From an uncultured Acidobacteriota bacterium (GTDB lineage: Bacteria > Acidobacteriota > Thermoanaerobaculia > Multivoradales > DATKCC01), in assembly GCA_963741925.1 (NCBI GenBank), contig CAVUJU010000005.1, positions 2,369,447-2,433,446 on the forward strand: a DNA stretch of 64,000 bases, written 5' to 3'. The position numbers and the translations under genes were made by a program. Positions within the stretch are counted from its first letter, which is position 1; every line of letters begins with the position of its first letter. Positions 1,977 to 58,701 of the stretch are shown piece after piece. The notes below the pieces were generated by a model that ran no database searches, was not told where the DNA came from, and saw only the letters and a list, made by a program, of their open reading frames with translations.

Positions 1977-2462
1977 CTACCCCGATCCCAGCCGTTCCGG
2001 CTTCACCACCGAGTACGGGTACTCCTCGCGGCTTCGCACCAGGCGGGCCCTGACCGGGTTGTCCAGGAGGTAAGCGACCACCGCCTCCAGGCTCTCCCGC
2101 CGGCGGACGACGTGGTCCCAGAACGAGCGCTGCCAGAGGGGCTCGCCGTATCCCGCTCTCCGGACCCGCCGGGTGGAGTAGGACTTGAAGGCCCGGACCG
2201 TCTCGATGACCCGGGCCGCGTCGTCCAGGAGCCAGTGGAGGTGGCCGGGCATGAGGCAGGCCGCGAGAGTGGCCGCGTGCTCCGCGAGGGCCTCGAAGAC
2301 CGGCAGCGCGACTCGGGGAAGGGTGAACGGCTCACCGTCACCCACGGTGCAGAGGGTGACGTGCACCGGCCGCTGGGGCGGATACAGGCCCGGCGGCAGC
2401 CGGTTGCCGCGGCTGCGGCGCCAGGTGCGGTACACGCTGCTGGCCGGGGGCGTGCGCGTCAT
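1977..2462 (-). CDS. rayT: REP-associated tyrosine transposase (RAYT; IS200/IS605-like TnpA_REP)
   Basis: HuH-like HLHWLL, and the C-terminal stretch GEPLWQRSFWDHVVRRRESLEAVVAYLLDNPVRARLV typical of RAYT/IS200 TnpA (WQxxF.DH...Y..NPV); flanked both sides by REP hairpins. Confidence 0.8.
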   Translation of the reverse strand: MTRTPPASSVYRTWRRSRGNRLPPGLYPPQRPVHVTLCTVGDGEPFTLPRVALPVFEALAEHAATLAACLMPGHLHWLLDDAARVIETVRAFKSYSTRRVRRAGYGEPLWQRSFWDHVVRRRESLEAVVAYLLDNPVRARLVRSREEYPYSVVKPERLGSG

Positions 2463-3640: not shown

Positions 3641-4403
3641 ACGCCTCCTCGCCGGCGAAGTTGTACGGCGGCCAGGGGCCGGTCAGGACCAGCTCGCACC
3701 CGGCGCCGTCGAGGGTGCGCGCCGCCGCCTCGGCCACCTCGCGAAAGGCGTCCTCGCCGTCGCGCGGCACCAGGAACGCGGCGTCGAGGAGCACGGCGCC
3801 GCCGGGCACAGGATCCTGGCGGCGGGACGCGACCGCCGCGGCGGCGAGCGCGGCGAACGCGCTCTCGACCGCCGCCGTCGTCTCGGCCGAGGGCGCCCGC
3901 CCGGCGTCGCGCAGGCGCTTCTTGCGCTCGAGGAAGGCCCGGCCGGAGGCGGCCGGCCGGGCGGCTCCGCCCGCCTCCGAGAGGACCCGGGCGCGCTCCG
4001 CGTCCCACCGCGCCCGCACCCCCCACTCCCGGCGACCGGTCACCCGGGCGAGAGCGCGGCGCACCTCGTGGCGGCGGGAGCGCACGTCCGCGAGCGCCCG
4101 CTCGTCGCTCGAGAAGAGGGTGAAGAGCTTCATCGGCAGGAGAGCGCCCGCGCCGGTGAAGTGCTCGACCAGCGCCTCGTGGGCGAGGGCCCGGTCGGAG
4201 ACCCAGGAGAGGTCCTGGAGGCGCGCCTCGATCTCGCCCGGGCCGTAGGTCTCGAGCGGGGCGCTCGCGGCGACCAGCCAGAGCCCGCCGCCCACCGCCA
4301 GGAGGCGGGGCGCCGCGGCGTCGGGAAGGCCCCGCGGGGCCCCTTCGAGCGCCGGCGGCTCGGGGTTCTCGACCAGGCAGTAGAGGTAGGTCGCCGTCGT
4401 CAT
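3636..4403 (-). CDS. gvpL: gas vesicle protein GvpF/GvpL family (copy 2)
   Basis: YLYCLV...PWPPYNF motifs; ATG overlaps the upstream stop (ATGA); the 845-aa ORF in the track is an over-extension. Confidence 0.8.
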   Translation of the reverse strand: MTTATYLYCLVENPEPPALEGAPRGLPDAAAPRLLAVGGGLWLVAASAPLETYGPGEIEARLQDLSWVSDRALAHEALVEHFTGAGALLPMKLFTLFSSDERALADVRSRRHEVRRALARVTGRREWGVRARWDAERARVLSEAGGAARPAASGRAFLERKKRLRDAGRAPSAETTAAVESAFAALAAAAVASRRQDPVPGGAVLLDAAFLVPRDGEDAFREVAEAAARTLDGAGCELVLTGPWPPYNFAGEEAS

Positions 4404-6417
4404 TCGAGGCTTGCCTCGGTCCACCGCCGGGCCCAGCGCTCGAGGGCCGCGGCGCCCCGGGGCGGGGGGTACTCGGCAGGGGCGCTCAGTATAGTGCAGC
4501 GGCAGCGCCGGCCGAGCTCCGCGAGGTGCCGGAGGGCGCCTCTCCGGGCCTCCCGGCAGCGGCGGCACGAGCCCTCCGGCAGGACGTTGGCCACCACCGC
4601 GGGAACGTGGACCTCCAGCGCCTCCAGGCGGGCGAGAAGGCGCTCGGTCTCGCGCCCGGGAAGCTCTCCCGCCCGGGTGACGGCCACGAACCGGCAGCGC
4701 GCGCGGTCGGCGAGCAGGGCCCGGAGGCGCTTGAGCGTGGCGGCGAGCTCCAGGAGGTCGCGCGCCAGGTCGCCCAGCCCGACCGCGTCCCGGTACTCGA
4801 GGAGCAGGGCGAGCAGGGCGTGGTCCCACTCGAGGGCGAGCGCGGGCATCTCGAGGAGGCGGAGGGCGTGGCCGGTGGGGGCGGTGTCCACCACCAGCAA
4901 CGGGCCGGCCGGACCGTCGCCGTCTCCGGGTCCGGCGCCGTCGAGGGCGTCGGTCAGCTCGCTCACCGCCACCAGCTCGTCGAGGCCGGGGGGCGTCGCC
5001 TCGAGGAGCCGCTCGAGGACCTCCCGCTCGAAGGGGGTGTCGATCCCCGAGCCGCCGCGGGCGAAGGCGCCGAACCCCCGCTCCAGGGCGTCGCGGTAGC
5101 GCTCCCGGCGGGCCGCGAAGCGGCCTCCGGCGTCGAGCTCCCGGGCGCGGAGCCCCTCCGGGCCGCCGGGCACCGGCCGCTCGGCGTCGCCCAGGTCCGC
5201 CTCGATCGCGTCGCCCAGGGAGTGGGCCGGGTCGGTGGAGAGGAGGACGACCCGCGAGGGCGGTGGCCCGTCGTTGCGGCCGGATCGCGCCAGGAGGAGG
5301 GCGAGGGCGGCGGCGCAGGTGGTCTTGCCGACGCCCCCTTTGCCGCCGACCAGGAGGAGCCGGAGGCCGGGAGGCGCGAGCTCGCTCAGCCAGGCGGGCG
5401 GACGTGCGGCCAGGGGCGGCGAGGGTGGCTGCGGCACCGGCTCCGGCGCCACCGGCTCGGGCGCCGGCAGGGGCCGGAGCGGAGCGCCGAGAGAGCCGCC
5501 GAGCGCGGCCAGGGCCGCCCGTCCCCGGGGCTCGGCGTCGAGCTCGGCCACGACGCGGAGGGGGAGCGTGGGGAAGGCCGCCCCGACCGTGGCCACGATC
5601 TCCGACTCGGCGCGGCGGCGGGCGGCGCACTCGGGGCAGGACGCGTCGGCGGGCAGGGGGTCCGGCGCCAGCCGGTTGACCACCAGCTCGTCGACGGTGA
5701 CGCCGGCGGCGGCGAGCGCGGCCAGGGCGTCGCGCGTCTCGGCGAGCGCCAGGGCCTCGGGCAGGAGGACCCAGACGAAGCGCGTCCGCTCCGGATCGCG
5801 GATCCGGCGGCCGATCTCTTGGGCCTCGGTCGCCACCGCCTCGGCGAGCTCGTCGGCCGCATCGGGCCGGAAGGCTCCGGTCAGGCGCCGGGCGAGCTCC
5901 TCGTGCCGGGCCGCGAAGGCCAGCAGCACGGCGGCGAAGCGCTCGAGGGCGGCGGGCATCTCGAGCAGGCGCAGGGTGTGGGCGGTAGGGGCGGTGTCGA
6001 CGATCACCCGGGTCGCGCCCGAGCCCTGGCCGAGGCGGGCGAGCTCGACCAGGCCCACCAGCTCGTCGACCCCCGGCACGGGCAGGTCGAGGAGCCGCTC
6101 GATCTCGGACGCGTCGAGGAGCGTGCCGCGCTCGGCGAGCGTCCGCAGGCCCGCGCGCCGCTCGCCGAGCCACCGGCGCCAGGCCGCTTCGGCGGCGAGC
6201 TCGGCGGCCAGGAGCCGGCCCCCGGCGCCGGGTGTGCCGGGAAGGAGCCGCGGCTCGGGGCCCAGGGGCACGTCCAGGGCGTCGCCCAGGGAGTGGGCGG
6301 GATCGGTCGAGATCACCAGCACGTCCTCGCCCGCTTCCGCGCGGGCGACGGCGGCCGCGGCGGCGAGGGTGGTCTTGCCGACGCCGCCCTTGCCGGCGAA
6401 GAAGGTATAGCGGATCA
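4400..6417 (-). CDS. ArsA/Get3-family ATPase, two tandem halves (anion-transporting / tail-anchored-protein ATPase-like)
   Basis: two P-loops, FFAGKGGVGKTT and LLLVGGKGGVGKTT; two DTAPTGH/DTAPTAH-TLRLLEMP signatures; STDPAHSLGDA x2. The first P-loop lies upstream of the first ATG and no canonical in-frame start occurs before the gvpG stop, so the start is uncertain (non-canonical CTG/ATC, or an indel). Confidence 0.7.
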
Positions 6418-6708
6418 GGGTCCCTCGTCGGGCCCGAAGCTCACCTCGGCGCCCACCACCTTCGAGGACATGGAGAGGCCCTGCCCCTCGCCCCGCTCCT
6501 CGCGGATCGAGCGCAGCCGGGCCAGGATCTCGCGCTCGGTCGCCGCGAACTCCTCGTCGCTGATCTCGCCGAGCTCGAGCCGCATCTGGGCCGCCAGGAG
6601 CTCCTGCTTCAAGTTGCCCTCGTCGTCCATCTCGGCCTCGACGGCCGCCGCCACCTTCTCGAGCACGAAGCGCAGCGGCGCGGTCAGCAGCCGGTCGATG
6701 ACGATCAC
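6415..6708 (-). CDS. gvpG: gas vesicle protein GvpG
   Basis: 97 aa, MIVIDRLLTAPLRFVLEKVAAAVEAEMDDE...ELGEISDEEFAATEREILARL matches the GvpG pattern; GTG start overlaps the gvpF stop (GTGA). Confidence 0.7.
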   Translation of the reverse strand: MIVIDRLLTAPLRFVLEKVAAAVEAEMDDEGNLKQELLAAQMRLELGEISDEEFAATEREILARLRSIREERGEGQGLSMSSKVVGAEVSFGPDEGP

Positions 6709-7571
6709 TCGTTGCCCACCGCGCGCTCGAGCTTGAGCCGGATGTTGACGAAGTTGTACGGCGGCCAGGGGCCGGTGTACTTGAAGCTCAGGTGGTCGTA
6801 GCGCCCGGCGACCTCCTTGACCCGGGCGTCGAAGTCCTCTTCGCGGTTGCGGCCGACCAGGAACGCGGCGTTGAGGATCATCTTCTCGCCGATCGGCTTG
6901 TTGGCGCGCGAGGCGACCGACACGTCGCCGAGGGAGATCATGATCTCGGAGGCCAGCTCCTCGGAGCGCTCCTGGAGCAGCGAGTCGACCAGGCGGCCGT
7001 ACTGCATCCTGGCGAAGTAGGTGGAGCCCCTCTGGGACTGGATCTCCTGGCGCAGGAGGCGGAGGTTCTCGTCCTCCTTCTCGATCTCCTGGATGATCAG
7101 ATCGGGCTCCCAGAGGACCTTGAGGCCGAACTCGAGCTTGCCCTGCATCTTCACCAACACGTCCTTGAAGGCGTCGTAGGCGCTGCGCAGGAGCTCGACG
7201 ATGTCCTCCTCGGTGCGGAAGACCGTGCCGAAGGACATGGGGATGACCGTGAACTGCTGCATCACGGTCTCGTTGACCCGCTCGTGGGCGAGCACGTTCT
7301 CCCGGGTCGGGTCGTAGACCTCGAGCGGGGTGTCGGAGGCGACCGCAGCGATGTCGCGGTAGCTCACGGTGCTCACCTCGGTGGGCTCGGAGCCGATCCC
7401 GGCGTGTCCGAAGCTGAGGTGCTCGTCGCTCTGGATGATGCAGTAGACGTACTTGCCGCTCGCCTGCGGGGCGGGACGCTCCCTCTCAGGCGAGGCTCCG
7501 GCCGCGGCGTCCGAGCGGCCGAGGGCCTCGGGCCGGCCGGTGGCCAGCGGCTCGTTCGACTGGTCGCTCAC
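6705..7571 (-). CDS. gvpF: gas vesicle protein GvpF/GvpL family (copy 1)
   Basis: KYVYCII...; C-terminal GPWPPYNF; GTG start overlaps the TGA of the upstream receiver gene. Confidence 0.85.
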   Translation of the reverse strand: MSDQSNEPLATGRPEALGRSDAAAGASPERERPAPQASGKYVYCIIQSDEHLSFGHAGIGSEPTEVSTVSYRDIAAVASDTPLEVYDPTRENVLAHERVNETVMQQFTVIPMSFGTVFRTEEDIVELLRSAYDAFKDVLVKMQGKLEFGLKVLWEPDLIIQEIEKEDENLRLLRQEIQSQRGSTYFARMQYGRLVDSLLQERSEELASEIMISLGDVSVASRANKPIGEKMILNAAFLVGRNREEDFDARVKEVAGRYDHLSFKYTGPWPPYNFVNIRLKLERAVGNE

Positions 7572-7981
7572 GATTCTCCTTTCGGCTCGTCGGCGGGTGC
7601 CGAGGACCTGCCGAGCTGGCGCCGTACCTCGCGTTCCAGCTCCTTGGGCACGACCGGCTTGGTGACCACCTCGTCACAGCCCGCGGCCAGGGCGCGGTCC
7701 CGCTCGCGCGACAGGGCGTGGGCCGTCAGGGCCACGATCTTGATGTGGCGGGTGCGCTCTTCGCTGCGCAGGAGGCGGGTCGCCTCCCAGCCGTCGACCT
7801 CGGGCAGCGACAGGTCCATCAGGATCACGTCGGGCAGGAGGTCGCGGGCCTTGGTCAGCGCCTCGGCGCCGTCCGCGGCCGTCGCCACGTCGTAGCCGCG
7901 GAAGGTCAGGTACTCGGCGCACAGCTCGCGCCCCGCGGCGAAGTCGTCGACCACCAGGACGAGCGGCTTCTCGGCGCTCAC
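7568..7981 (-). CDS. single-domain response regulator (CheY-like receiver)
   Basis: LVLVVDDF...D...LMDLSLPEVDGWE...KIVALTAHA receiver motifs; GTG start overlaps the HK stop (GTGA). Confidence 0.8.
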   Translation of the reverse strand: MSAEKPLVLVVDDFAAGRELCAEYLTFRGYDVATAADGAEALTKARDLLPDVILMDLSLPEVDGWEATRLLRSEERTRHIKIVALTAHALSRERDRALAAGCDEVVTKPVVPKELEREVRRQLGRSSAPADEPKGES

Positions 7982-18950: not shown

Positions 18951-20519
18951 GCGGGCGAGGGGCGCGAGCTTCGCCTCGGCGGTGCTCCAGCCGACCACCA
19001 GGAGGCCGAAGAACGGGTACTTCCGGTGCTCCCGGATCTCGCTCTCGAAGGCGACCGCTTCGTGGGCCCGGGCCAGGTCGGCCGGCAGGCGCACGAGGAA
19101 GCGGCTGCCGAGGCCCTCGGCGCTGGTCACGGAGAGGTCGCCGCCGTGGGCCCGCACCCTCTCCCGGGCGATCGAGAGGCCGAGGCCGGTGCCCCGGACC
19201 GTGCGGGTGAGGCAGTCCTCGGCCTGGTAGAAGGGCTCGAAGATCCGCCGGCGGTGCTCGCGGGAGATGCCCGGCCCGGTGTCCGAGACCGCGAGCTCGG
19301 CCCACCCGCCGTGGCGCCGGACGCCGACCTCGACGCGCCCGCCCGCCGGCGTGAGCTTGAGGGCGTTCGATACCAGGTTGGTGACCACCTGGGCGAGCCG
19401 CTGCGGGTCGGCGAGGACGGTGGGCGTCGGCCGGTCGAGCGCCAGGTCGAGCGTCACCGAGGAGGCCTCGGCCTGCGGGACGAAGGTGGCGCGGAGGTCG
19501 TCGAGGAGCCCGGCGAGGGGCACCGGCTCGAAGCGGTACTCGAGCTTCCCCGCCTCGATCTTCGACAGGTCGAGGAGGTCGTCGATGATCACCGCCAAGC
19601 GCTCGACGTTCCTCCGGGCCATGGCGAGGAACCGCTTCTGGGGCTCGGCGAGCGCTCCGGTCTGCTCGCGCCGGACCAGGTCGATCGAGCTCTTGATCGA
19701 GGTCAGCGGGGTGCGCAGCTCGTGCGACACGGTGGAGACGAAGGCGCTCTTGAGCTCGGAGAGCTTGGCCAGCTCCCGGTTCGCGTGCTGGAGCCGGCCC
19801 TCGACCCGGCGCCGCTCCTCGACCTCTTCCTCGAGGCGGCGGTTGGCGAGCTCCAGGCCGACGCGCACCTCCTCCAGGCGGCGCACGGCCTCGGCCTCGG
19901 AGTGGGCCCGGTTCTGCTCCCGGCGCACCCGGTCGACCAGGTAGCCGTAGAACGAGGCGACGGCGAACAGGAAGGGGATCCGGATGAGCGAAGCGGTGGT
20001 GAGGACGCCGCTCGCCCCCGACGTCGACAGGCCGTAGAGGTAGGCCGAGCAGACGACGACGGAGCCCAGGGCGATGAGCGCCAGGCTCTCGCCGATGGCG
20101 GCGAGGAAGAGGACGAAGAAGTAGAGGTAGAAGAACTCGGTGCCGAAGTGGCGGGTCAGGATCAGGGCGGTGGTGATCCACGCCCTGTCGGCCACCAGCA
20201 CTCCGGCGGTGAAGGGGCGGCTCCCGAGCCAGCGTGCGGGAAGCCTGGCGATCGCCACGTTCGAGGCGATCGCCAGGACGATGAGCGCGGTGAGCCCCGT
20301 CGAGAGCCCGGAGAACCCGGTCTCCGAGAGCACCATGTAGGAGGTCGCGATGATCAGGGTGAAGCGCAGCAGGACGAAGGCGTGGCCCCGGCTGCGGAGG
20401 GCCTGGCTGGATCCCCCCCGGAACCCCTCGACCCCCGTCCCGCCCCCGGGGGGCGAAGGGGATGCCCCCTCCCCGTCGCGATCGGGGCGTCGCTGGTTGC
20501 CCTCGGTCTCTTGGTCCAT
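18950..20519 (-). CDS. membrane sensor histidine kinase (multi-TM N-terminus + HisKA + HATPase_c); 3' end unresolved because of a frame break
   Basis: H-box SHELRTPLTSIK; N/G boxes VTNLVSNALKLT, GTGLGLSIARE; GC3 signal leaves this frame near 18950. Confidence 0.75.
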
Positions 20520-24349: not shown

Positions 24350-24650
24350 GCAGGGCTCGAGCCCAACCGGTACCTGGGAGGGGGCGTCCCCTTCCCCCCC
24401 CTCGGGGGTGGGAAGGGGATCGAGGGGATGCGGGGGGGATCCGGTGGATCGTCCCCTTCCCCCCCCTCGGGGGTGGGAAGGGGATCGAGGGGATGCGGGG
24501 GGGATCCGGTGGATCGTCCCCTTCCCCCCCCTCGGGGGTGGGAAGGGGATCGAGGGGATGCGGGGGGGATCCGGTGGATCGTCCCCTTCCCCCCCCCGCG
24601 GGGGTGGGAAGGGGATCGAGGGGATGCGGGGGGGGGACCTAAAAGACGCG
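24350..24650. repeat. G-tract/C-tract tandem repeat array A (~4.5 units of 61-65 bp)
   Basis: unit GGTGGATCGTCCCCTTCCCCCCCCTCGGGGGTGGGAAGGGGATCGAGGGGATGCGGGGGGGATCC repeated head-to-tail. Confidence 0.9.
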
Positions 24651-28889: not shown

Positions 28890-28965
28890 GGGCGGCGGCC
28901 CGGGCGGCCGAGCCACAGCTCGGCTGCTTCATAGGACTCGAACGCGTGAAGCGGCCGACCTCTGC
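28890..28965. repeat. solo REP-like double hairpin between convergent genes (possible terminator)
   Basis: GCCGAGC-CAC-AGCTCGGC and GGCCGAC-CTCTGC-GTCGGCC palindromes resembling the RAYT-flanking REPs. Confidence 0.6.
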
Positions 28966-29030: not shown

Positions 29031-29075
29031 GTGGCGTCCCCTGGGGGAGGGAAGGGGATCGAGGGGATGTGGGGA
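29031..29075. repeat. solitary unit of the G-tract repeat family
   Basis: GGGGAGGGAAGGGGATCGAGGGGATGTGGGG. Confidence 0.6.
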
Positions 29076-29083
29076 GATCCGCT

Positions 29084-30598
29084 CTACTGGCTCCTCGCGG
29101 TGCGGATCTCGAGGCCTCGCGTTCGCGGCTCGATCTGGAGGTGCGCCAGCTCGTCCTCGGAGAGCACCCGGTCGAGGGCGATGTCCAGGACGTACTGGTG
29201 GCGCAGCTCCTGGTCGATCTCGGCGTAGGCCCGCGCCAGGTCGTCCCGGCTCTGGATCCGGAGGAAGCGCCCACCGGTCTCCCGGGCGACGCTCGCCAGC
29301 CGCAGCGGCGGCTCGAAGTTCGTCCGCCCGGTCGCCAGGCCGCCGATGCCGAGGACGTAGACCGGCACGCCGGCCCGCCGCGCGTAGAGCGAGGCCTGGC
29401 CGGCGTCGAGGTGGCTGCTCGAGTCCTCGCCGTCGGTGAGCACCACCAGGGCCCGCCGGCCGACCTGGCGCTCGAGCGCGAGGGTGGCGAAGACGATCGA
29501 GTCCCAGAGCGCCGTCTCACCGCCGGCCTCCAGCTCGTCGAAGGCGGCCGCGAGGTCGGCGGGCTCGCCGGTGAGGTCGTGGACCAGCCGGGGCGCGGTG
29601 TCGACGTCGACCAGGAGGGCTCGGTCGCCGGGGATCAGGGTCGCTTCGAGGAACTGCTCCGCGGCGTCCTTCGTCTCGCCCAGTACCGGCGTCATGCTGA
29701 CCGAGGAGTCGACCAGCAGGCCGAGGACCAGGGGGACCTGGCGGGCCTTGCGGAAGCGTTCGATGGCGACCTCTCGGCCGCCCAGACGGACCGCGAAGTC
29801 TTCGGGCCCGAGACTCGCGACGGGGCGCCCGCGCCGGTCGGTCGCGACCGCGAAGAGCTCGACCAGGTTGACGTCCACGTGGCCGGCGGCGCCCTCGCCG
29901 AGCAGGGGGCGAGCGTCTTCGAGGCTGCTCCCGTCGGCGAGGTAGGCGACCGCCCGCAGGTAGTCCCCGGCTCCGGGGTCGGGGGTCGGCACCCGGGCCC
30001 GGAAGGGCGGCCGGTCGAGGCGGGCGACCCGCTCCTGGTTGCGGAAGAGCTCGACGTGGTCGAGGGTCTCGCCCGGAGGCAGGGCGACCGCCATCTCGAC
30101 CTCCACCGCGCCCGTTGCGGGCCGCCCGCTCACCCGTTCGATGGTGACGCCGGAGGCGCTCTGCCGCGGGTCGAGGGTGAGGGAGTCCTCGCCGAGCCGC
30201 CGGCCGTCGGCGCCGTAAGCGACCGCCTGGAGCGTCCGCGGTGCGTCGCCCCCGGGCAGATCGAGGCGCACCGAGAAGGGCCAGTAGCCGTCGGCCGCCG
30301 CCTCGCGCCCGTCGACGAAGAACACCACCCGGTCGATGTCGGAGGAGGTCGAGACGGTGTCGATCCGGACCCGCCCCGCGACCCGCGGCGGGGGAACGAG
30401 GAGGAGCGGCGGGCCGGCGGGAGCGCCGACCGGATCGCGGCTCCGGTCGGCGGCGGCGCCCGGCCGAGCCGCCGGCGCCTGGGCGCGGCTCTCGCGAGGC
30501 CAGGGCCCGAGGGCGGCCAGAAGCGCCAGTGCCAGGACGGCCGCGAAAGCCGGCGACCGCCGCCGGACGAACCGGGCGTCGATCGGCGTCGAGCGCAT
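29084..30598 (-). CDS. secreted von Willebrand factor A (VWA) domain protein
   Basis: signal peptide; VLGLLVDSSVSM...TALWDSI (MIDAS DxSxS...T...D). Confidence 0.75.
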   Translation of the reverse strand: MRSTPIDARFVRRRSPAFAAVLALALLAALGPWPRESRAQAPAARPGAAADRSRDPVGAPAGPPLLLVPPPRVAGRVRIDTVSTSSDIDRVVFFVDGREAAADGYWPFSVRLDLPGGDAPRTLQAVAYGADGRRLGEDSLTLDPRQSASGVTIERVSGRPATGAVEVEMAVALPPGETLDHVELFRNQERVARLDRPPFRARVPTPDPGAGDYLRAVAYLADGSSLEDARPLLGEGAAGHVDVNLVELFAVATDRRGRPVASLGPEDFAVRLGGREVAIERFRKARQVPLVLGLLVDSSVSMTPVLGETKDAAEQFLEATLIPGDRALLVDVDTAPRLVHDLTGEPADLAAAFDELEAGGETALWDSIVFATLALERQVGRRALVVLTDGEDSSSHLDAGQASLYARRAGVPVYVLGIGGLATGRTNFEPPLRLASVARETGGRFLRIQSRDDLARAYAEIDQELRHQYVLDIALDRVLSEDELAHLQIEPRTRGLEIRTARSQ

Positions 30599-30639
30599 GA
30601 TGCTGGTGAGAGTCTACCCGATGCCTGGACTCCCCTGCC

Positions 30640-30895
30640 GAAGCGGTGGTAGGGGGCGTCCCCTTCCCCCCCGGTGGGGAGGGAAGGGAATGGACGGGAT
30701 GTGGGGGGGATGCGGGGGGCATCCGGTCAATCGTCCCCTTCCCCCCCCGTGGGGAGGGAAGGGAATGGACGGGATGTGGGGGGGATGCGGGGGGCATCCG
30801 GTCAATCGTCCCCTTCCCCCCCCCCGCTGGGGTGGGAAGGGAATGGACGGGATGTGGGGGGGGGGATGCGGGAGGCATCCGGAAGACCGGCGGGT
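30640..30895. repeat. G-tract tandem repeat array B (~3.5 units of ~75 bp) in a divergent promoter region
   Basis: unit GTCCCCTTCCCCCCCCGTGGGGAGGGAAGGGAATGGACGGGATGTGGGGGGGATGCGGGGGGCATCCGGTCAATC. Confidence 0.9.
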
Positions 30896-30910
30896 AACAT
30901 CGTCGCCGTC

Positions 30911-31702
30911 ATGGAGCTCCGCCGCCTCGCCTGGACCGTCGTCACCTCGGAGAGCCTCGCCGAGAAGCTGGCGTCCCCGGAGGTGCCGCCGGCCGAGCTC
31001 ACCGACCGCGAGCCCGGGCCGGCGCTGCGCCTCGCGGCCCCGGGGCGGCCGCCGGGGCTCGAGATCCAGCCCGTCGCCCGCGCCCGCGTGCCGTCGATCG
31101 GCGGCATGGCCGACCCGGCGCAGCGCGCCCGGATCCTCCACGCCCTGGCCAACCACGAGCTCCAGGCGGCCGAGCTCTTCGCCTGGGCGCTCCTCGCCTT
31201 CCCCGGAGCCCCGCCGGCCTTCCGGCGCGGCCTGGCGGGCATCCTCCTCGACGAGCAGCGCCACACCCGCATGTACCTCGCCCGGCTGGAGGCCCTGGGC
31301 GAGCGCTTCGGCGCCCATCCGGTCAGCGGTTACTTCTGGAACAAGGTGGAGGCGATCGACTCGCCGGCCGCCTTCGTCGCCGCGATGTCCCTGACCTTCG
31401 AGAACGCCAACCTGGACCACACGGTGGACTACGCCGCCGCCGCCCGGGCGGCCGGCGACGGGGCGACGGCGGCGGTCATCGACCGCGTGCACCGCGACGA
31501 GGTGGAGCACGTGCGCTTCGGCTGGATCTGGCTCGAGCGGCTCAAGCCTCCGGACCAGTCGATGTGGGACGCGTTTCGCGCCCAGCTCACCTGGCCCCTG
31601 CGCCCGGCGAAGGCGCGCGGGGCGACCTTTCATCGCGCGGGGCGGGAGGCCGCCGGGCTCGACCCTGAGTTCATCCGCCGCCTCGAGGAGAGCGAGCCGT
31701 GA
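30911..31702 (+). CDS. ferritin-like DUF455 family protein
   Basis: HALANHELQAAELFAWALLAFP...DEQRHTRMYLARLEALG...GYFWNK. Confidence 0.7.
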   Translation: MELRRLAWTVVTSESLAEKLASPEVPPAELTDREPGPALRLAAPGRPPGLEIQPVARARVPSIGGMADPAQRARILHALANHELQAAELFAWALLAFPGAPPAFRRGLAGILLDEQRHTRMYLARLEALGERFGAHPVSGYFWNKVEAIDSPAAFVAAMSLTFENANLDHTVDYAAAARAAGDGATAAVIDRVHRDEVEHVRFGWIWLERLKPPDQSMWDAFRAQLTWPLRPAKARGATFHRAGREAAGLDPEFIRRLEESEP

Positions 31703-32770
31703 GCCCCAAAGCCGATGGGGGCGCCGATGAGAGCGCCGGCGAGCCGCGCCTGATCGTCGCCAACCTGGGCTGGGAGGAGGAGCTCGCAGGGGGTACCCGG
31801 CCGGGCGAACGAGCCCTGTCGAGGCGGGCGCGATCGGTGGTGGGTTCTGCCGCCGGCTGGCTCCGTCTGCTCGCCCGCGACGGCGACCGCCTCTGGGTAC
31901 CGGACGCCGCAGAGGCCGTCGACGTCGAGCCGCCGGGGGGCCGTCGGCTCGTCCTGCCGCGGGTGCGGCTGGAGCGTGGGGCCGCGGCCGGAATCGCGCC
32001 CGCGACGGAGGTGCTGGCCTGGGGGGAGAGCCCGGCCGTGGCGGCGCTCCGGCGGGGCTCACGGCCTTCCGGGGGAGCCTTCGCAAGCCACGGGTCGCTC
32101 CACCAGGCCCTCTGGTCGCTGGCTCCGGCGCCGCCGGAGGTCGCCGCCGCCTGCCACCATCGCGCCTTCGCCCTGGCGGCGGTCGAGGCGCTCCAGGAGG
32201 CGCGGCCCCGCGAGGAGGGGTGGGCGCTGCCCGGCGCGCGGATGGTCGCTTCCGTCGGCGAGCTCGAGCGGCACCTGGCGGCGGGCGGTGCGGCGGCGGG
32301 CGGCGGGCGCTGGGTGCTGAAATCGCCGTGGTCGGCGGCCGGCCGCGGGCGGCACCTGGGCACGGGGCCGGGCGACCTTCGCGAGCCGGCGAGCCGGCGC
32401 CACGTCGAGCGACTCCTGGAGCGCCACGGATCGCTCCTCTTCGAGCCGTGGGTGGACCGGCTGGCCGACTTCGGCGCCGCCGCCCTGGTGACGCCGGAGG
32501 GCCTCCGGCGGGTCGGCGTCCACGGCCAGGAGGTCGACGGTCGCGGGGTCTTCGCGGCGATCCAGCTCGCTCCGGAGCTCGCCGCCGACGAGCGCCGGCG
32601 CCTGGAGGCGGCCGTCGAGTCGGTGGGGGAGCGCCTGAGGGCCGCCGGCTACGTGGGGCCCTTCGGCGTCGACGCGTACCGCTTCCGGACGCCGGACGGC
32701 CGGCTCGTCTTCCGCCCCCTTTCAGAGGTCAACGCCCGGATGACCTTCGGGCTCCTCGCGCACGTCTTGA
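31699..32770 (+). CDS. hypothetical protein, possibly ATP-grasp-like; 3' end runs into repeat array C, so the true stop is uncertain
   Basis: GC3-biased ORF; GTG start overlaps the DUF455 TGA. Confidence 0.5.
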
Positions 32771-33730
32771 CCGGATGCCCCCCGCATCCCCTCGATCCCC
32801 TTCCCTCCCCACGGGGGGGAAGGGGACGGTTGACCGGATGCCCCCCGCATCCCCTCGATCCCCTTCCCTCCCCACGGGGGGGGGGAAGGGGACGGTTGAC
32901 TGGATGCCCCCCGCATCCCCTCGATCCCCTTCCCTCCCCACGGGGGGGAAGGGGACGGTTGACTGGATGCCCCCCGCATCCCCTCGATCCCCTTCCCTCC
33001 CCACGGGGGGGGAAGGGGACGGTTGACTGGATGCCCCCCGCATCCCCTCGATCCCCTTCCCTCCCCACGGGGGGGGGAAGGGGACGGTTGACTGGATGCC
33101 CCCCGCATCCCCTCGATCCCCTTCCCTCCCCACGGGGGGGAAGGGGACGGTTGACTGGATGCCCCCCGCATCCCCTCGATCCCCTTCCCTCCCCACGGGG
33201 GGGAAGGGGACGGTTGACCGGATGCCCCCCGCATCCCCTCGATCCCCTTCCCTCCCCACGGGGGGGAAGGGGACGGTTGACTGGATGCCCCCCGCATCCC
33301 CTCGATCCCCTTCCCTCCCCACGGGGGGGGGAAGGGGACGGTTGACTGGATGCCCCCCGCATCCCCTCGATCCCCTTCCCTCCCCACGGGGGGGGGAAGG
33401 GGACGGTTGACCGGATGCCCCCCGCATCCCCTCGATCCCCTTCCCTCCCCACGGGGGGGGGAAGGGGACGGTTGACTGGATGCCCCCCGCATCCCCTCGA
33501 TCCCCTTCCCTCCCCACGGGGGGGAAGGGGACGGTTGACTGGATGCCCCCCGCATCCCCTCGATCCCCTTCCCTCCCCACGGGGGGGAAGGGGACGGTTG
33601 ACTGGATGCCCCCCGCATCCCCTCGATCCCCTTCCCTCCCCACGGGGGGGAAGGGGACGGTTGACCGGATGCCCCCCGCATCCCCTCGATCCCCTTCCCT
33701 CCCCACGGGGGGGGGAAGGGGACGCCCCCT
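32760..33730. repeat. C-tract/G-tract tandem repeat array C (~15 units, 62-66 bp; G-run length varies 7-10)
   Basis: unit CCGGATGCCCCCCGCATCCCCTCGATCCCCTTCCCTCCCCACGGGGGGGAAGGGGACGGTTGA is the reverse complement of the array A/B unit; no unique spacers. Confidence 0.95.
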
Positions 33731-53409: not shown

Positions 53410-53580
53410 GCGCATGGTCCGGATGTCCGCACTACGGATCGCGACACGAGGTCTCGTCGCGGCCCTACGTACACTTCGCGTATACTGCTCAGTGGCATCT
53501 TCGGTACCTTGGGATGATGCGCCGGCCGGGCAGCTCTCCGCTTCCCGGCGCCGGCGGCAGCTTCGAGAGGAGGCCGAAAC

Positions 53581-56500
53581 GTGGCGAATCGAGATGCGGC
53601 GAAGCTCCGTCGCTGTTGGCTCTTCACACTCGCGCCGGTCCCGGTTCGCCCGGTCGCGGCGATTCTGGCCTCGACGCTCCTGGCCTCGACGCTCCTGGCC
53701 TCGACGCTCCTGGTGCCGGCCGCCTCCGGGCAGGCGATTCCTGGAAAGGCGTGTGGCCCCGAGGTGGCAGAGGGGACCACGTTCCACTTCGAGGAGGAGA
53801 CGAGCGCTCAGCTCCCTGCTGGTGTCTGCTTCGTCACCGCGTTCCACTGCGACCAGCCCGAGGAGGATGGAGGGCCGACCTACCAGCTGCTCGACGCCGG
53901 GTGCGACCCGACGGCCGGACCGTGCCGGGTCCAGGTTCGCGTGCCGCTGAAGTTCCCGGGCAACCAGGACAACATCCACGACGGCCCCCTCCACGTCGAG
54001 GAGGTGCGCTGGTACGTCCTGTCGGCGGCCCCGTCGTGCGAGGACTCGGTCCAGTGCGGCCAGGTCTCCACCTGTGGCAAGGAGGGCACCGGCACGGCGA
54101 CCATCAACACCGAGCGCGCGGTGTTCACCGCCACCCGCAGCTTGTCCTGCGCCGACGTCCAGCACACCGACCAGCCGCTGTCGCTCACCGCCTGGGCGTG
54201 CGTCACCACCTCGGGCTGCAAGCAGCGGCTCGACATCAACGGTCTCGACCTCGACGGGCCGGACGTGGCCGCACAGATCGGCTGCCCGGACCCGCCGAAG
54301 CAGAACTGCGGCGCGGGCGACGCGTCGAGCTGCCAGGTGTGCACGCCGGCCGGGGTCGGCCCGGGCTTCGGCCTTCCCGGGTACGGCGGGCCGGGGGACG
54401 GGGCGACCGGCCCGAACGCGACGTTGCGATATTCGTCAAAGGGCGCAGGCCACCCTGGCTACCCCGGCACGCCCTCTAGGAACGTCGCGTTGGGCCGCTA
54501 CTGGAGCCACGACTACGCCGAGCGGATCGTCGCCGTCGGGAGCCCGAACCCGGAGGATCACGTCTGGATGATCACGAAGTACGGGACCTTCCGCGAGTGG
54601 AGCGCTCCGGACGCGGGCACGGGCGTCTACGCGACCGTCTCGCCGTCCGACGAGTACCGCACCCTCACCTGGACCGGCTCGGGCTGGACCTTGACCGACC
54701 TCGACGGGACGGTCGAGGAGTTCGATGCCGCGGGGCTCTGGCGCTCGACCACCGACCGCAATCTCAACCAGAAGATCGCGACCTACACGGCGGGCCAGCT
54801 CACCTCGGTCGCCCTGCCGGACGGCCGCCGGGAGGACTTCACCTACTACCCGGCGGGCGATCCCGCCGAGGGCAAGCTCGCGTCGATCACCGAGTACGGC
54901 ACGGACGGCGTCACCCACTTGCCCGCGTGGGACTACAGGTGGACCGGCGACGACCTGACCGAGATCGACCGCCCCGACGGGACGGCGCTCCTCTTCGAGT
55001 ACGACGGGACGACCGGGTACCTTGCCAAAGTCAGGCTCCGCGAGAGGAACGGCACCGCGACCCGGGTGCTCCGGGCCTGGTCGTACACCCCGGACGGTAA
55101 GGTCTCCGAGACCTGGAAGGGCGGCGACACCCCGGCCGCAGGCACCGAGGACTGGAAGCTCTCCTACGACAGCTCGACCCAGACGACGGTGACCGATCCG
55201 CTGGGCAAGCCCATCGTCTACACCTACGAGCTCGACCCGGCGAGCCCGAACGTCCGGGTGACGCAGATCTCGGGAGATTGCCCCGTCTGCGGCCTCGCCC
55301 CGAACGTCCAGCTCGGCTACAGCGATCCCGCGAACCCTCTCCGCCCCACGGCCACCACCGACGGCCGCGGCATCACCACGGCGATGAGTTACGACACCCA
55401 CGGCCAGGTGACCTCCCGGACCGAGGCCATGGGCGAGCCCGAGGCCCGGACCACCGAGTGGGCCTACGACCCGGCGTTCCCGGCCCTCGCGACCTCGATG
55501 GACCAGCCCTCGGTCGCCGGCGGGGCCTCGCTGCGGACAACCGACTGGACCCGCGACGGCTCCGGCAACCCGACGGACCGGACGATCTCGGGCTCCGAAG
55601 CCGGCTCGGCCTTCACCTTGACGACGGCGAGCAGCTTCAACGCCGCCGGCCTCCCCCTGACGATCGACCCGCCCGGCTACACGACCACCGACCAGACGAG
55701 CTTCACCTACGACGCGACCGGCCTGATTCCCATGACCCGGACCGACCCGCTCGTCGGCACGACCACCTTCGGCCACGACGCCTTCAACCGCCGGACCTCG
55801 GTGACCGACCCGAACGGCCTCGAGACCACCACGGCCTACGACGAGCTCGACCGGGTGACCGAGGTCCGCCAGCTCGGGCCCGCGACGCCCACCGACGACC
55901 TGGTGACCGCCTACGAGTACACGAGCTTCGGGGATCTCTTCCGGACCACCCTGCCCGCCGGCAACGTCGTCGAGTACGCCTACGACCCCGCCGGCCGGTT
56001 GACCTCCGTCGAGCGGCGGCCCGACGCCACCACCCACGGCGAGCGGGTCGTCTACACCCTGGACGCCGCCGGCAACCGGACCCGGGAGGAGCGCCAGCGG
56101 TGGGACGCCGGGAGCTCCACCTGGGTGCCCGTCTCGGCCACCGCCTACGACTACCAGAACCGCTGCCAGGTCGACCAGGTCCGCCAGGGCGCGGACCAGC
56201 CCGAGGAGGCGACGACCGCCTTCGAATACGACTGCGACGGCAACCTGACCTCCGTCTGGGACCCTGACCACGACCGGGCGACCGACCCGCCGACCACCAC
56301 CTATGGCTACGACCTCTTGAACCGCCTGACGAGCGTCTCTCAAGCCTGGCAGCCTCCCGGCGGGACCCCGGGCACGGCCGTCACCACGTACTCCTATGAC
56401 GTCCAGGACCACCTGACAGGCGTCACCGACGCCGAGGGGAACCCGACCACCTACGTCGACTCGGACCGGGACCTCCTGACCCAGGAGGACTCCCTCGTCT

Positions 56501-58701
56501 CGGGGACGACGACCCATCGCTACAACGAGCACGGCGAGGAGGACCGCTCGACCGACGCCCGGGGGATCGTCGTCGCCCGCACGATCGACGCGCTCGACCG
56601 GGTGACGAACGTCGACTACCCCGACGACACCCTGGACACGACCTACCTCTACGACACGGCGCCCGGCTCCTGCGCCGCTCCGGGCTCGCCCGTCGGCCGC
56701 CTGGCCTCCATCACCCGGAACGGCGAGACGCTCGACTTCTGCCACGACCACTTCGGGCGGATGGTGAAGGACGGCGAGCTCGGCTACACCTGGGACGCCA
56801 ACGGCAACCGCACCGGGATCGTCTATCCTGGAGGGGTGAGCGCGGCCTACGGCTTCGACTTCGCCGACCGGGAGACGAGCCTCTCGGTGACGACCCCCGC
56901 GGGGGGCGTCACGCCCACCGGCGTCGTCACGGCCGCCGCCTACCTGCCCTCGGGACCGCTCTCGAGCCTCGCCCTCGGCAACGCCACCACCGAGACCCGG
57001 GCCTTCGACGGCCGCTACGTCCCCTCCGGGATCACCCTCTCGGGCCTGGCCGGAGGCGTCCCCGGCCACACCTGGACGTATGCCACCGACCGGGTGGGCA
57101 ACGTCACCGAGATCGTCGAGACCCCGGAGTGCTCCGGCGGTGGCTCGACCCTCGTCCTCGAGAACCAGACCGTCACGACGGATGAGACCTTCACCTCCTG
57201 CGCCGACCTCCAGGCGGGAAACGGCTTCACCGTCCAGAGCCCCGGGAACGTGACCTTCCAGGCGCAGGGCAAGGTCGTCCTCACCAGCGGCTTCTCGGTG
57301 GGCAACGGCGCCTCCTTCGCCGCCGGCTCCGGGTCGCTGCCAACCTTCTCCGATCGGACCTTCAGCTACCAAGCGCCGCAATACTTCCTCACCTCCGCCG
57401 CCCTCACCCGGGCCGCCGGCTCCTGGGGCACCCGCGACTGGTCGTACGACAAGATCGGCAATCGCCTCAGCGAGAGCCGGGACAGCGGAGCCAGCTCCGA
57501 CGGCTACGTCTACACGACGAACGCCGCCTCCGGCGATACCCCCGTCCTCGACCTCGTGAACCTCACCGTCAGCGGCACCCGCGACTACACCTGGGACGCC
57601 GCCGGCAACCTCGACTCCGTGGCCCCCGGCGGGAACCTCGTCGACTTCACCTTCGACGACGCGAGCCGCTTGTCTGCCGCCGGCCACCCGGCCTCGGGAG
57701 CGAGCGCCGCCTTCCTCTACGACGGCCGAGGCTTCCTCCGGAGCGCCACTCAGACCGCCGGCGGCACCGCCTCCGTCACCCCCCTCTACGACTCCGCCGG
57801 CCTCCTCCACGCCCTCCGCCGCCAGCCCAGCCCCACGGACCCGCTCGACACGACCTACGTCTTCTACCTCGCCGACCGCCCCGTCGCCCAGCTCCAAATC
57901 GACGGCACCGGCACCGAGACCTGGACCTACCTGACCACCGACCACCTCGGCACTCCCCTCATCGCCACCGACCAGAGCGGCGCGATCACCTGGGAAGGCG
58001 GCTTCGAACCCTTCGGTACCGACTACCAGGCGGGGATGACGGGGGTGGGGGCCTCGGAGAACGGGATCGACCTGAGGCTCCCCGGCCAGTGGGTCGACGA
58101 CACCTGGGCCGATGCCACCTCCGGAGCTGGGATCCACTACAACGTCTGGCGGTTCCTCGAAACACAGACTGGACGCTATACCCGGCCCGATCCCAAGCGA
58201 CTCCGGAGCGGAGAGTCGAACCTCTATCTCTACGCTCGGAACAACCCGCTGCTCAGCAGCGACCCCCTCGGGCTCTACACAGTCCTCGGTCCAGGCGCTC
58301 ACAGGGTGCGGGAGGCTTTCGATCTCCTCCGTCCGCTCGTCCTTCCCGGGAACAAGCAGCGCGACCCATGCGATCCGTGCCAGAAGATCTTCCGGAAGCT
58401 CGGGCTGGACCCTCGAATGCTCGACGAGAACGGTGCCGCCCCCATCATCTACACCGCTGCAGCTCCTCTCGATCCATCCCAAGCCTACGGCACCTACAAG
58501 TGCTCCGATTGGATCTGGATCGATCGCCGGCTCACCGAGGGCTCCGACCCGAAAAGACTCCGGTGCCTGGCTGCGAAACTCGCTCATGAGCTCGCCCACT
58601 TCCTGGCGGGTCATTGCCTTACAGAGGGGCCGGAAGGGCAAGGTGCTGAGAAGGCTTGCTTCGGGCGTCTCGTCGAAGGGACCAGCGAATGCGGGTTCTA
58701 G
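53581..58701 (+). CDS. rhs: Sec-secreted Rhs/YD-repeat polymorphic toxin whose C-terminal tip carries an HExxH motif
   Basis: signal peptide; Cys-rich N-domain; dozens of YD repeats; RHS core ending GIHYNVWRFLETQTGRYTRPDP...DPLGL; C-terminal tip with HELAHF. Confidence 0.9.
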   Translation: MANRDAAKLRRCWLFTLAPVPVRPVAAILASTLLASTLLASTLLVPAASGQAIPGKACGPEVAEGTTFHFEEETSAQLPAGVCFVTAFHCDQPEEDGGPTYQLLDAGCDPTAGPCRVQVRVPLKFPGNQDNIHDGPLHVEEVRWYVLSAAPSCEDSVQCGQVSTCGKEGTGTATINTERAVFTATRSLSCADVQHTDQPLSLTAWACVTTSGCKQRLDINGLDLDGPDVAAQIGCPDPPKQNCGAGDASSCQVCTPAGVGPGFGLPGYGGPGDGATGPNATLRYSSKGAGHPGYPGTPSRNVALGRYWSHDYAERIVAVGSPNPEDHVWMITKYGTFREWSAPDAGTGVYATVSPSDEYRTLTWTGSGWTLTDLDGTVEEFDAAGLWRSTTDRNLNQKIATYTAGQLTSVALPDGRREDFTYYPAGDPAEGKLASITEYGTDGVTHLPAWDYRWTGDDLTEIDRPDGTALLFEYDGTTGYLAKVRLRERNGTATRVLRAWSYTPDGKVSETWKGGDTPAAGTEDWKLSYDSSTQTTVTDPLGKPIVYTYELDPASPNVRVTQISGDCPVCGLAPNVQLGYSDPANPLRPTATTDGRGITTAMSYDTHGQVTSRTEAMGEPEARTTEWAYDPAFPALATSMDQPSVAGGASLRTTDWTRDGSGNPTDRTISGSEAGSAFTLTTASSFNAAGLPLTIDPPGYTTTDQTSFTYDATGLIPMTRTDPLVGTTTFGHDAFNRRTSVTDPNGLETTTAYDELDRVTEVRQLGPATPTDDLVTAYEYTSFGDLFRTTLPAGNVVEYAYDPAGRLTSVERRPDATTHGERVVYTLDAAGNRTREERQRWDAGSSTWVPVSATAYDYQNRCQVDQVRQGADQPEEATTAFEYDCDGNLTSVWDPDHDRATDPPTTTYGYDLLNRLTSVSQAWQPPGGTPGTAVTTYSYDVQDHLTGVTDAEGNPTTYVDSDRDLLTQEDSLVSGTTTHRYNEHGEEDRSTDARGIVVARTIDALDRVTNVDYPDDTLDTTYLYDTAPGSCAAPGSPVGRLASITRNGETLDFCHDHFGRMVKDGELGYTWDANGNRTGIVYPGGVSAAYGFDFADRETSLSVTTPAGGVTPTGVVTAAAYLPSGPLSSLALGNATTETRAFDGRYVPSGITLSGLAGGVPGHTWTYATDRVGNVTEIVETPECSGGGSTLVLENQTVTTDETFTSCADLQAGNGFTVQSPGNVTFQAQGKVVLTSGFSVGNGASFAAGSGSLPTFSDRTFSYQAPQYFLTSAALTRAAGSWGTRDWSYDKIGNRLSESRDSGASSDGYVYTTNAASGDTPVLDLVNLTVSGTRDYTWDAAGNLDSVAPGGNLVDFTFDDASRLSAAGHPASGASAAFLYDGRGFLRSATQTAGGTASVTPLYDSAGLLHALRRQPSPTDPLDTTYVFYLADRPVAQLQIDGTGTETWTYLTTDHLGTPLIATDQSGAITWEGGFEPFGTDYQAGMTGVGASENGIDLRLPGQWVDDTWADATSGAGIHYNVWRFLETQTGRYTRPDPKRLRSGESNLYLYARNNPLLSSDPLGLYTVLGPGAHRVREAFDLLRPLVLPGNKQRDPCDPCQKIFRKLGLDPRMLDENGAAPIIYTAAAPLDPSQAYGTYKCSDWIWIDRRLTEGSDPKRLRCLAAKLAHELAHFLAGHCLTEGPEGQGAEKACFGRLVEGTSECGF

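Follow-up and report, generated by a model that had tools for sequence, protein, structure and literature searches.

A G-tract double-hairpin array between divergent VWA and DUF455 genes, a probable lineage-specific expansion of a dispersed Thermoanaerobaculia repeat

Array B, its flanking genes and the anatomy of its units

The window (the whole stretch of DNA that was analysed, 64 kb) belongs to a Thermoanaerobaculia genome of 72% GC. It includes a gene encoding a VWA-domain protein (29084-30598, minus strand; 504 aa; Pfam VWA_2, E 1.8e-11) and a gene encoding a ferritin-like DUF455 protein (30911-31702, plus strand; 263 aa; Pfam DUF455, E 1.2e-48), which diverge from a spacer of 312 bp (30599-30910). 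This arrangement, with the DUF455 ATG at 30911, had been given in the original prediction and is confirmed by the Pfam matches and by orthologues that are called with the same starts. The DUF455 orthologue P0001 is 95% identical and of equal length. The DUF455 gene and the next ORF overlap by 4 nt (31699). Elsewhere in the window, a gvpL/gvpF gas-vesicle protein gene (6705-7673; E 5e-76) adjoins a gene encoding an ArsA-like ATPase with a duplicated domain (4400-6787); this pair of genes (4400-7673) may belong to a gas-vesicle cluster. The gene at 53518-58701 encodes a large RHS-repeat protein (~1727 aa).

The spacer carries array B (30657-30882, plus strand), which consists of three head-to-tail units of 75 bp. 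It was delimited by TRF (30657-30882; period 75, 2.9 copies, 94% matches, score 377), by pattern matches and by dissection of the units. Cut at the GTCCCCTT anchor, the units are 30657-30731, 30732-30806 and 30807-30882. The count is thus 3.0, not the about 3.5 copies that had been proposed: positions 30638-30656 are a non-repeat leader (CCGAAGCGGTGGTAGGGGG, plus strand) and positions 30883-30910 are unique sequence. The array had also been said to fill the entire intergenic space; it occupies 226 of the 312 bp (72%), and the array-free remainder (58 + 28 bp) holds the only blocks that are conserved in orthologous loci. Units 1 and 2 differ by a single base. Unit 3, on the DUF455 side, is the most diverged (C10, G10, GGGGTGGG, GCGGGAGGC). 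The homopolymers of the three successive units are C7/C8/C10 and G7/G7/G10; these differences could partly be long-read sequencing errors. A coding reading of the array was rejected: the ORFs that run through it are the usual spurious ORFs of 72% GC sequence.

The basic unit of the family has 63 bp and is made up of a leader ending in GGGAGGGGGC, hairpin 1, a G-rich linker (TCGAGGGG), hairpin 2 and a tail (GGTCAAC, or more generally RGTCAAC). All arrays and solo copies have GGG(A/T/C)GGGGGC at the start, then GTCCCC. Hairpin 1 is formed by a C-rich arm, TCCCCTTCCC(C)CCCC, a loop of 2-4 nt and a G-rich arm, GGGG(A/T)GGGAAGGGGA; the arms pair over 15-17 bp with one internal mismatch. Hairpin 2, GGATGC-GGGGG-GCATCC, has a stem of 6 bp. 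The description of the 75-bp unit as a variant with a 12-bp internal duplication is accurate: it is the 63-bp unit plus a 12-bp duplication of GGATGYGGGGGG, so that GGATGTGGGGGG GGATGCGGGGGG stands where the 63-bp unit has a single copy, and GATCGA is changed to AATGGAC. In unit 2 (plus strand), hairpin 1 (CGTCCCCTTCCCCCCCC / GGGGAGGGAAGGGAATGGACG) spans 30732-30771, the 12-bp duplication (GGATGTGGGGGG) lies at about 30772-30783, directly before hairpin 2, and hairpin 2 spans 30783-30799. Hairpin 1 of the other two units lies at 30657-30696 and 30807-30849. The 75-bp variant with AATGGAC is found in array B only, the rest of the window and 97 loci being without it; because it is private to this array, its three copies are taken to have been amplified in place.

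The unit is predicted to fold as single-stranded DNA at about -20 kcal/mol, hairpin 1 of unit 2 included, with z-scores of -1.3 to -2.4 against shuffled sequences; in all, the fold z-scores range from -0.9 to -2.4. These z-scores are weak because the C-/G-tract composition folds well even when it is shuffled; since the shuffles fold nearly as well, the energy alone is no evidence of structure. Variation between copies is a separate source of information, and the pairs of hairpin 1 were counted across the family by an anchored regex. One unit (L024) has a compensatory change from C-G to T-A; five units from two genomes (three in L044, one in L007, one in L066) have two adjacent compensatory changes, CCCTCTCCC/GGGAGAGGG. 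Three more changes, from C to T, give G-T wobbles. A few copies have uncompensated changes, including a G to A that is common to all three units of array B; the array B units have an alternative outer stem, CGTCC/GGACG. At the level of sequence comparison, this pattern of variation shows that pairing matters. The compensatory changes could be mechanical, i.e. due to template switching in quasi-palindromes, instead of reflecting selection on a DNA or RNA structure.

Each unit of the three arrays of the window also carries one canonical G-quadruplex motif (PQS; G3+N1-7, four times) on its G-rich strand. In array B these motifs lie at 30676-30698 (unit 1, plus strand), 30751-30773 and 30829-30851, with G4Hunter scores of up to 2.44, and the array thus has the four G3+ tracts with short loops that define a potential quadruplex. 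Of the 36 PQS of the window, 22 fall in the three arrays. Hairpin and quadruplex are predicted to compete, because the first G-tracts of the motif are the 3' arm of hairpin 1.

Copies, genomic positions and REP neighbours of the family

The window contains 24 units, which are distributed among arrays A, B and C and two decayed solo copies. The diagnostic pattern TCCCCTTCCCCCCN{2,10}GGGGNGGGAAGGG, which spans the main hairpin, has 22 matches in the window versus 0.00 expected from shuffles. Array A (24385-24634, plus strand; four 65-bp units, TRF) lies between convergent genes, 46 nt past a co-oriented stop codon. Array C (32767-33724, minus strand; fifteen units of 63-66 bp, TRF) lies 46 nt past the stop of a co-oriented peptidase S10 gene. 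The first solo copy, referred to as site D (20407-20462, minus strand), is decayed; its orthologous counterpart in L033 consists of two intact units. The other one (29043-29074, plus strand) is partial, being without most of the C-rich arm, and lies directly after the stop codon of the VWA gene and 80 nt past a REPIN of the RAYT family. Higher-order periodicities of array C (TRF periods 384 and 447) do not correspond to a clear block structure among the unit variants and carry no weight here as to whether homopolymer variants are genuine.

The gene that follows DUF455 (31699-33345, plus strand) has orthologues of 359-381 aa; in the window, its last ~25 codons and its stop codon are lost to array C. 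The ORF reads about 190 repeat codons in frame (63 bp, 21 codons) until a length variant of a C-tract shifts the frame. This extension is either a real repeat-encoded tail or an effect of homopolymer errors.

In a pattern scan of one genome per prokaryotic species, the family was found at 92 or more loci, in at least 11 MAGs; this sample of loci is dominated by two MAGs. Among the matches listed, all loci are in Thermoanaerobaculia/Acidobacteriota MAGs. An nhmmer profile built from the units of the window detects at least 145 units in the 92 loci listed. Short-read MAGs have solo copies only; long-read MAGs (MFD...) have arrays of 2-7 units. No match to the window was found in Rfam at the gathering threshold, the hits with E up to 1 being only chance miRNA-precursor-like hairpins below threshold, and the family pattern has no match in the viral contigs of IMG/VR. 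Among the titles and abstracts listed for Thermoanaerobaculia repeats, none is relevant.

Two variants of the unit and of its context were observed in other genomes. In the short-read SMAG MAGs (SMAG_U6236/U6239 and related ones; solo copies, L001-L092), the unit is the core of a composite of about 200 bp, which starts at the stop codon of the upstream gene (TAG/TAA/TGA-AACGAAA...) and has a conserved 3' module, GCTTCGAGTAGGCCTCCACCGCCACATCGCAGCGCCGTTTCATCCCTCGGGG...; some of these composites are chained. The units with CCCTCTCCC/GGGAGAGGG arms form a subfamily (L044 3520-3880, L066 6359-6445, L007 7206-7293) with a different 3' half, GGGTGAGGGGGGCGATC; it adjoins canonical units, sometimes with a spacing of ~137 bp.

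The positions of the units relative to genes were analysed for 117 unit clusters of the window and 94 loci, with crude heuristic gene calls based on GC3. The 5' neighbour of the unit has the same orientation as the unit in 68 cases versus 39 (binomial p 0.0065). Distances from stop codon to unit form a tight cluster at 24-46 nt and are usually 30-46 nt. The 3' tail of the unit includes the last 2-5 nt of a convergent gene in 11 cases (e.g. L023 7352-7470, L017 3512-3636, L091 2913-3164). Sites between divergent genes number 4/89 or 9/85, according to the set of thresholds; compared with repeat-free gene pairs (9/85 vs 55/297), the odds ratio is 0.52 (p 0.10), which, with gene calls as crude as these GC3-based ones, is a trend only towards depletion of the family between divergent genes. 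The family occupies at least 117 places, mostly after co-oriented stop codons or between convergent genes, so the unit is no device specific to promoters. Its members typically sit at the 3' ends of genes, and array B is atypical in its placement. At 3' ends, the units plausibly act as mRNA 3'-end or terminator-like structures. The reverse complement of the unit tail, TTGACC, contains TGA, and the element seems to supply the stop codon of the convergent gene.

A gene for a REP-associated tyrosine transposase (RAYT) is found in the window (1977-2462, minus strand; NCBIfam NF047646, 80.2 bits for a cut-off of 80, E 1.3e-22; Pfam Y1_Tnp, E 1.9e-4). Its flanks (1733-1972 and 2537-2719) contain tandem REPIN-like inverted repeats, CCGGCCGAGACAGAGCTCGGCCGCTTCA...TGAAGCGGCCGAGCTCYGCCTCGGCCGG, which are distinct from the G-tract units. 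G-tract units do not flank this RAYT gene, the one examined. A physical link with RAYT-type REPs is found at other places. In the window, a RAYT-type REP (REPIN doublet) occupies 28916-28962 and precedes the solo unit at 29043 by 80 nt. The closest relative (CAWIQD01) has five arrays whose first G-tract unit is preceded, at exactly 60 nt, by such a REP; the places concerned are L017 3449-3520, L039 1425-1495, L066 6939-7010, and L077 6106-6175 and 6366-6435. These REP-linked arrays have a common leader, ...CACGAAAG..GATGGGAGGGGGC (also given as ...GCTTCATGGGTTCGGAGTGATTCCGCAGCCACGAAAG..GATGGGAGGGGGC), whose end resembles the leader of array B (CCGAAGCGGTGGTAGGGGGC). The association of REP and unit suggests composite elements or co-mobilisation; joint spread of the family and RAYT-type REPs is possible, but this is no more than a lead. 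Neither a transposase nor a target-site duplication tied to the family was found among the unit loci. A linked mobilising gene was also looked for among recurrent neighbours and rejected, as these belong to ordinary paralogous families (two-component and sigma-54 regulators, FtsX/ABC transporters, sulfatase).

Orthologous spacers and conserved blocks

The closest relative available is MFD01721.bin.1.17 (L093), with 95% identity for DUF455 and about 86-92% for DNA, and with collinearity on both sides of the locus. Exact-match queries with the DUF455 and VWA proteins, and a metagenome scan with the unique left flank, gave no hits, and the collections covered contain no genome of the same species. 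In L093, 244 bp of the window (30624-30867) are replaced by 56 bp, which contain a decayed half unit (0.6) without the C-rich arm, ...GCGGCGT-GGGCAGGGGATCGAGCGGCCGCGGGGGGCATCCGGAAG. Unit-free spacers of 100, 61 and 117 bp are found in L094 and L095/L096 (81% identity) and in L097 (76%); the VWA/DUF455 spacer of relatives has 61-125 bp. The number of units at the site of array B is thus 3 in the window, 0.6 in L093 and 0 in L094, L095 and L097, in a comparison between species with 80-95% protein identity. Other sites of the window also differ: site A has 4 units versus 1 in L094, site C has 15 units versus 0 in both L093 and L094, and site D has 1 decayed unit versus 2 in L033.

Only two blocks are conserved among the five orthologous spacers compared. 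The block on the VWA side is GAGAGTCTA(C/T)C, whose reverse complement contains TAGACT, 12 nt before the ATG. The block on the DUF455 side is G(G/A)GTAACAT, 10 nt before the DUF455 ATG. They include two -10-like boxes, TAGACT for VWA (AGTCTA on the plus strand; 30611-30616, minus strand) and TAACAT for DUF455 (30895-30900, plus strand), both of which are kept in the window, L093, L094 and L095 and have a putative promoter role. A scan of 30300-31200 for consensus promoters and terminators found no site and no sigma-70-like promoter; promoter positions are therefore based on cross-species conservation only. On this basis, we infer that the two blocks are the -10 boxes of two back-to-back promoters that would produce leaderless or near-leaderless mRNAs; if so, array B would be absent from both mRNAs. 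Both boxes are outside array B. The only part of the array that lies within the presumed promoters is the presumed -35 of DUF455 (GAGGCA, 30872-30877), which belongs to the last unit and whose repeat-derived bases are kept in L093. Since the boxes are outside the array, a change in copy number would alter the distance between the two promoters, not the -35/-10 spacing that is altered in the classical mechanism of phase variation. In phase-variable promoters, the tract is located in the core promoter or in the reading frame; given the promoter positions inferred here, array B is in neither.

A history of the site can be proposed from these comparisons. One unit would have entered the compact divergent VWA/DUF455 spacer in the common ancestor of the genome of the window and L093. 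In the lineage of the window, this unit would have gained the 12-bp duplication and would then have been copied head-to-tail to three units, presumably by replication slippage or by unequal recombination between units. In the lineage of L093, the unit would have decayed. The array would spread the two core promoters about 190-250 bp further apart and would make up the sequence immediately 5' of the DUF455 -10 box; effects on expression, if there are any, would be a by-product.

Nature of array B and significance of the family

REPs (repetitive extragenic palindromes) and BIMEs (bacterial interspersed mosaic elements) are known from enterobacteria and pseudomonads (PMC3116915, PMC3686654). The family is similar to them in being made of short, imperfect, GC-rich palindromes that occur outside genes in many copies per genome (24 units in the window, at least 145 in the 92 loci listed), mostly past gene ends and between convergent genes. 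It is also similar in that its units are clustered, mosaic with other short modules, lineage-specific in sequence, and present or absent at orthologous sites. The mosaic structure is seen in the ~200-bp SMAG composite with its 5' and 3' modules, in the REP, leader and units of CAWIQD01 and in the bare arrays of the window. The family differs in that its units are head-to-tail, up to 15, whereas BIME/REPIN clusters alternate in orientation; all its arrays are direct repeats, without the inverted doublets of REPINs. Its unit has two hairpins and long G/C tracts, without the conserved GTAG head, and the RAYT gene of the window is flanked not by this unit but by different REPINs of its own.

MIRUs, the interspersed repetitive units of mycobacteria reported by Supply et al. 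(1997), provide a second comparison. Shared features are units of 40-100 bp in direct tandem arrays at many dispersed intergenic sites (in this family, the arrays of the window and of long-read MAGs have 2-15 units of 63-75 bp), frequent abutting or overlapping of the stop codons of flanking genes, copy number that varies among related genomes, and a unit of 63 bp, divisible by 3, through which a neighbouring ORF can run in frame (array C). MIRUs differ in that they are not strongly palindromic and mostly occur within operons, oriented along transcription; variability among strains and mini-ORFs in frame have been documented for them but not for the present family. CRISPR arrays are also direct repeats that contain a palindrome in intergenic DNA; this identity was rejected, as the units are contiguous without spacers, no cas genes are nearby and the arrays are many, small and scattered. 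REP/BIME/MIRU-like repeats are a known kind of element, and this particular family appears undescribed.

Array B is best explained as a REP/BIME/MIRU-like mosaic hairpin repeat that was inserted in this lineage and then amplified locally in tandem, and that is most likely neutral or selfish here; a probability of about 0.7 is given to this reading.

The original prediction had proposed that copy number or quadruplex structure could modulate both promoters in the manner of phase variation. The simple sequence repeats of phase-variable promoters (poly-G, TA, TAAA etc.) are known in Neisseria, Haemophilus and Campylobacter, and homopolymers of 7-10 nt are of the tract length that slips in known contingency loci. 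A switch of this type, in which frequent changes in the number of units or in poly-G/poly-C length turn the VWA and DUF455 promoters on and off or tune them, would fit the location of array B between divergent genes, the presence of 7-10-nt G/C homopolymers upstream of genes, their variation between neighbouring units (C7-C10/G7-G10) and the variation of unit number among related genomes, here and at other sites; the VWA protein may moreover be extracytoplasmic. This switch is nevertheless unlikely and is not the most economical reading. The family is found mostly after stop codons, not at promoters, and array B lies outside the presumed -35/-10 window: the -10-like boxes are beyond its ends, and -35/-10 spacing and reading frames would be unaffected by changes in the repeat. 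The variation seen is between species only, the homopolymer differences are maybe sequencing errors, and no sigma-70-like promoter was found within the array. The unit of 75 bp is on the scale of a minisatellite or VNTR, not of a contingency repeat of 1-8 bp. The quadruplex part of the proposal leads to an element of DNA structure, in which the extrusion of a cruciform or a quadruplex absorbs negative supercoils and couples or insulates the divergent promoters. According to the twin-domain model, negative supercoiling is expected between divergent genes, and the position of array B fits this prediction, as do the hairpin of 15-17 bp in every unit and the concentration of PQS in the arrays, one canonical motif per unit (plus strand in array B). 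Against this, the G-arm of each PQS can pair with the C-rich arm beside it, and hairpin or duplex would compete with the quadruplex; most members of the family are in 3' regions, where the logic of supercoiling fails, and relatives do with a unit-free spacer of 61-125 bp. Such a structural role is considered quite improbable.

A little less probable again is an array of binding sites for a protein (nucleoid protein, regulator or RAYT transposase), the occupancy of which would be set by copy number. The units are very strongly conserved across the 11 listed genomes, including unpaired positions such as GGGGATCGAGGGG, the window has a RAYT gene, and five arrays of the closest relative are fused, at a fixed distance of 60 nt, to a RAYT-type REP; yet the repeats that flank the RAYT gene belong to a different sequence family, no regulator gene is recurrently linked to the units, and recent spread explains the conservation equally well. 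An artefact, i.e. a mis-assembled repeat or a chance low-complexity tract in a 72% GC genome, is the least credible explanation. Homopolymer-rich repeats are error-prone in long-read assemblies, and the restriction of short-read MAGs to solo copies could be read in the same sense; but the pattern is expected 0.00 times by chance, array B has substitutions of its own and a terminal unit that has diverged, its flanks run collinear with those of orthologous loci, and arrays occur in several independent long-read MAGs. A broader scenario, as doubtful as the phase-variable switch, combines several of these elements: the G-tract double-hairpin units would be an undescribed mobile mosaic element of Thermoanaerobaculia that hitch-hikes on RAYT-type REPs, docks at stop codons as a terminator or mRNA-end structure without a U-tail and expands into hypervariable arrays, array B being co-opted as a copy-number-tunable, supercoil-sensitive (cruciform/G4) spacer between leaderless divergent promoters.

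Taken as a lineage-specific insertion with local amplification, what looks like a special promoter feature is one instance of a genome-wide repeat family, a point that guards against over-interpretation. Tuning of the divergent promoters by array B, if real, would be a rare case of minisatellite-scale modulation of promoters outside pathogens. The family is restricted to a class of uncultured acidobacteria. In short-read assemblies its arrays break or collapse; they could be used as VNTR markers for strain typing in soil metagenomes and occasionally rewrite gene ends, where stop codons are supplied, or removed as at 32767. Physically linked as it is to RAYT-type REPs, the family could help to show how repeats of this sort spread.
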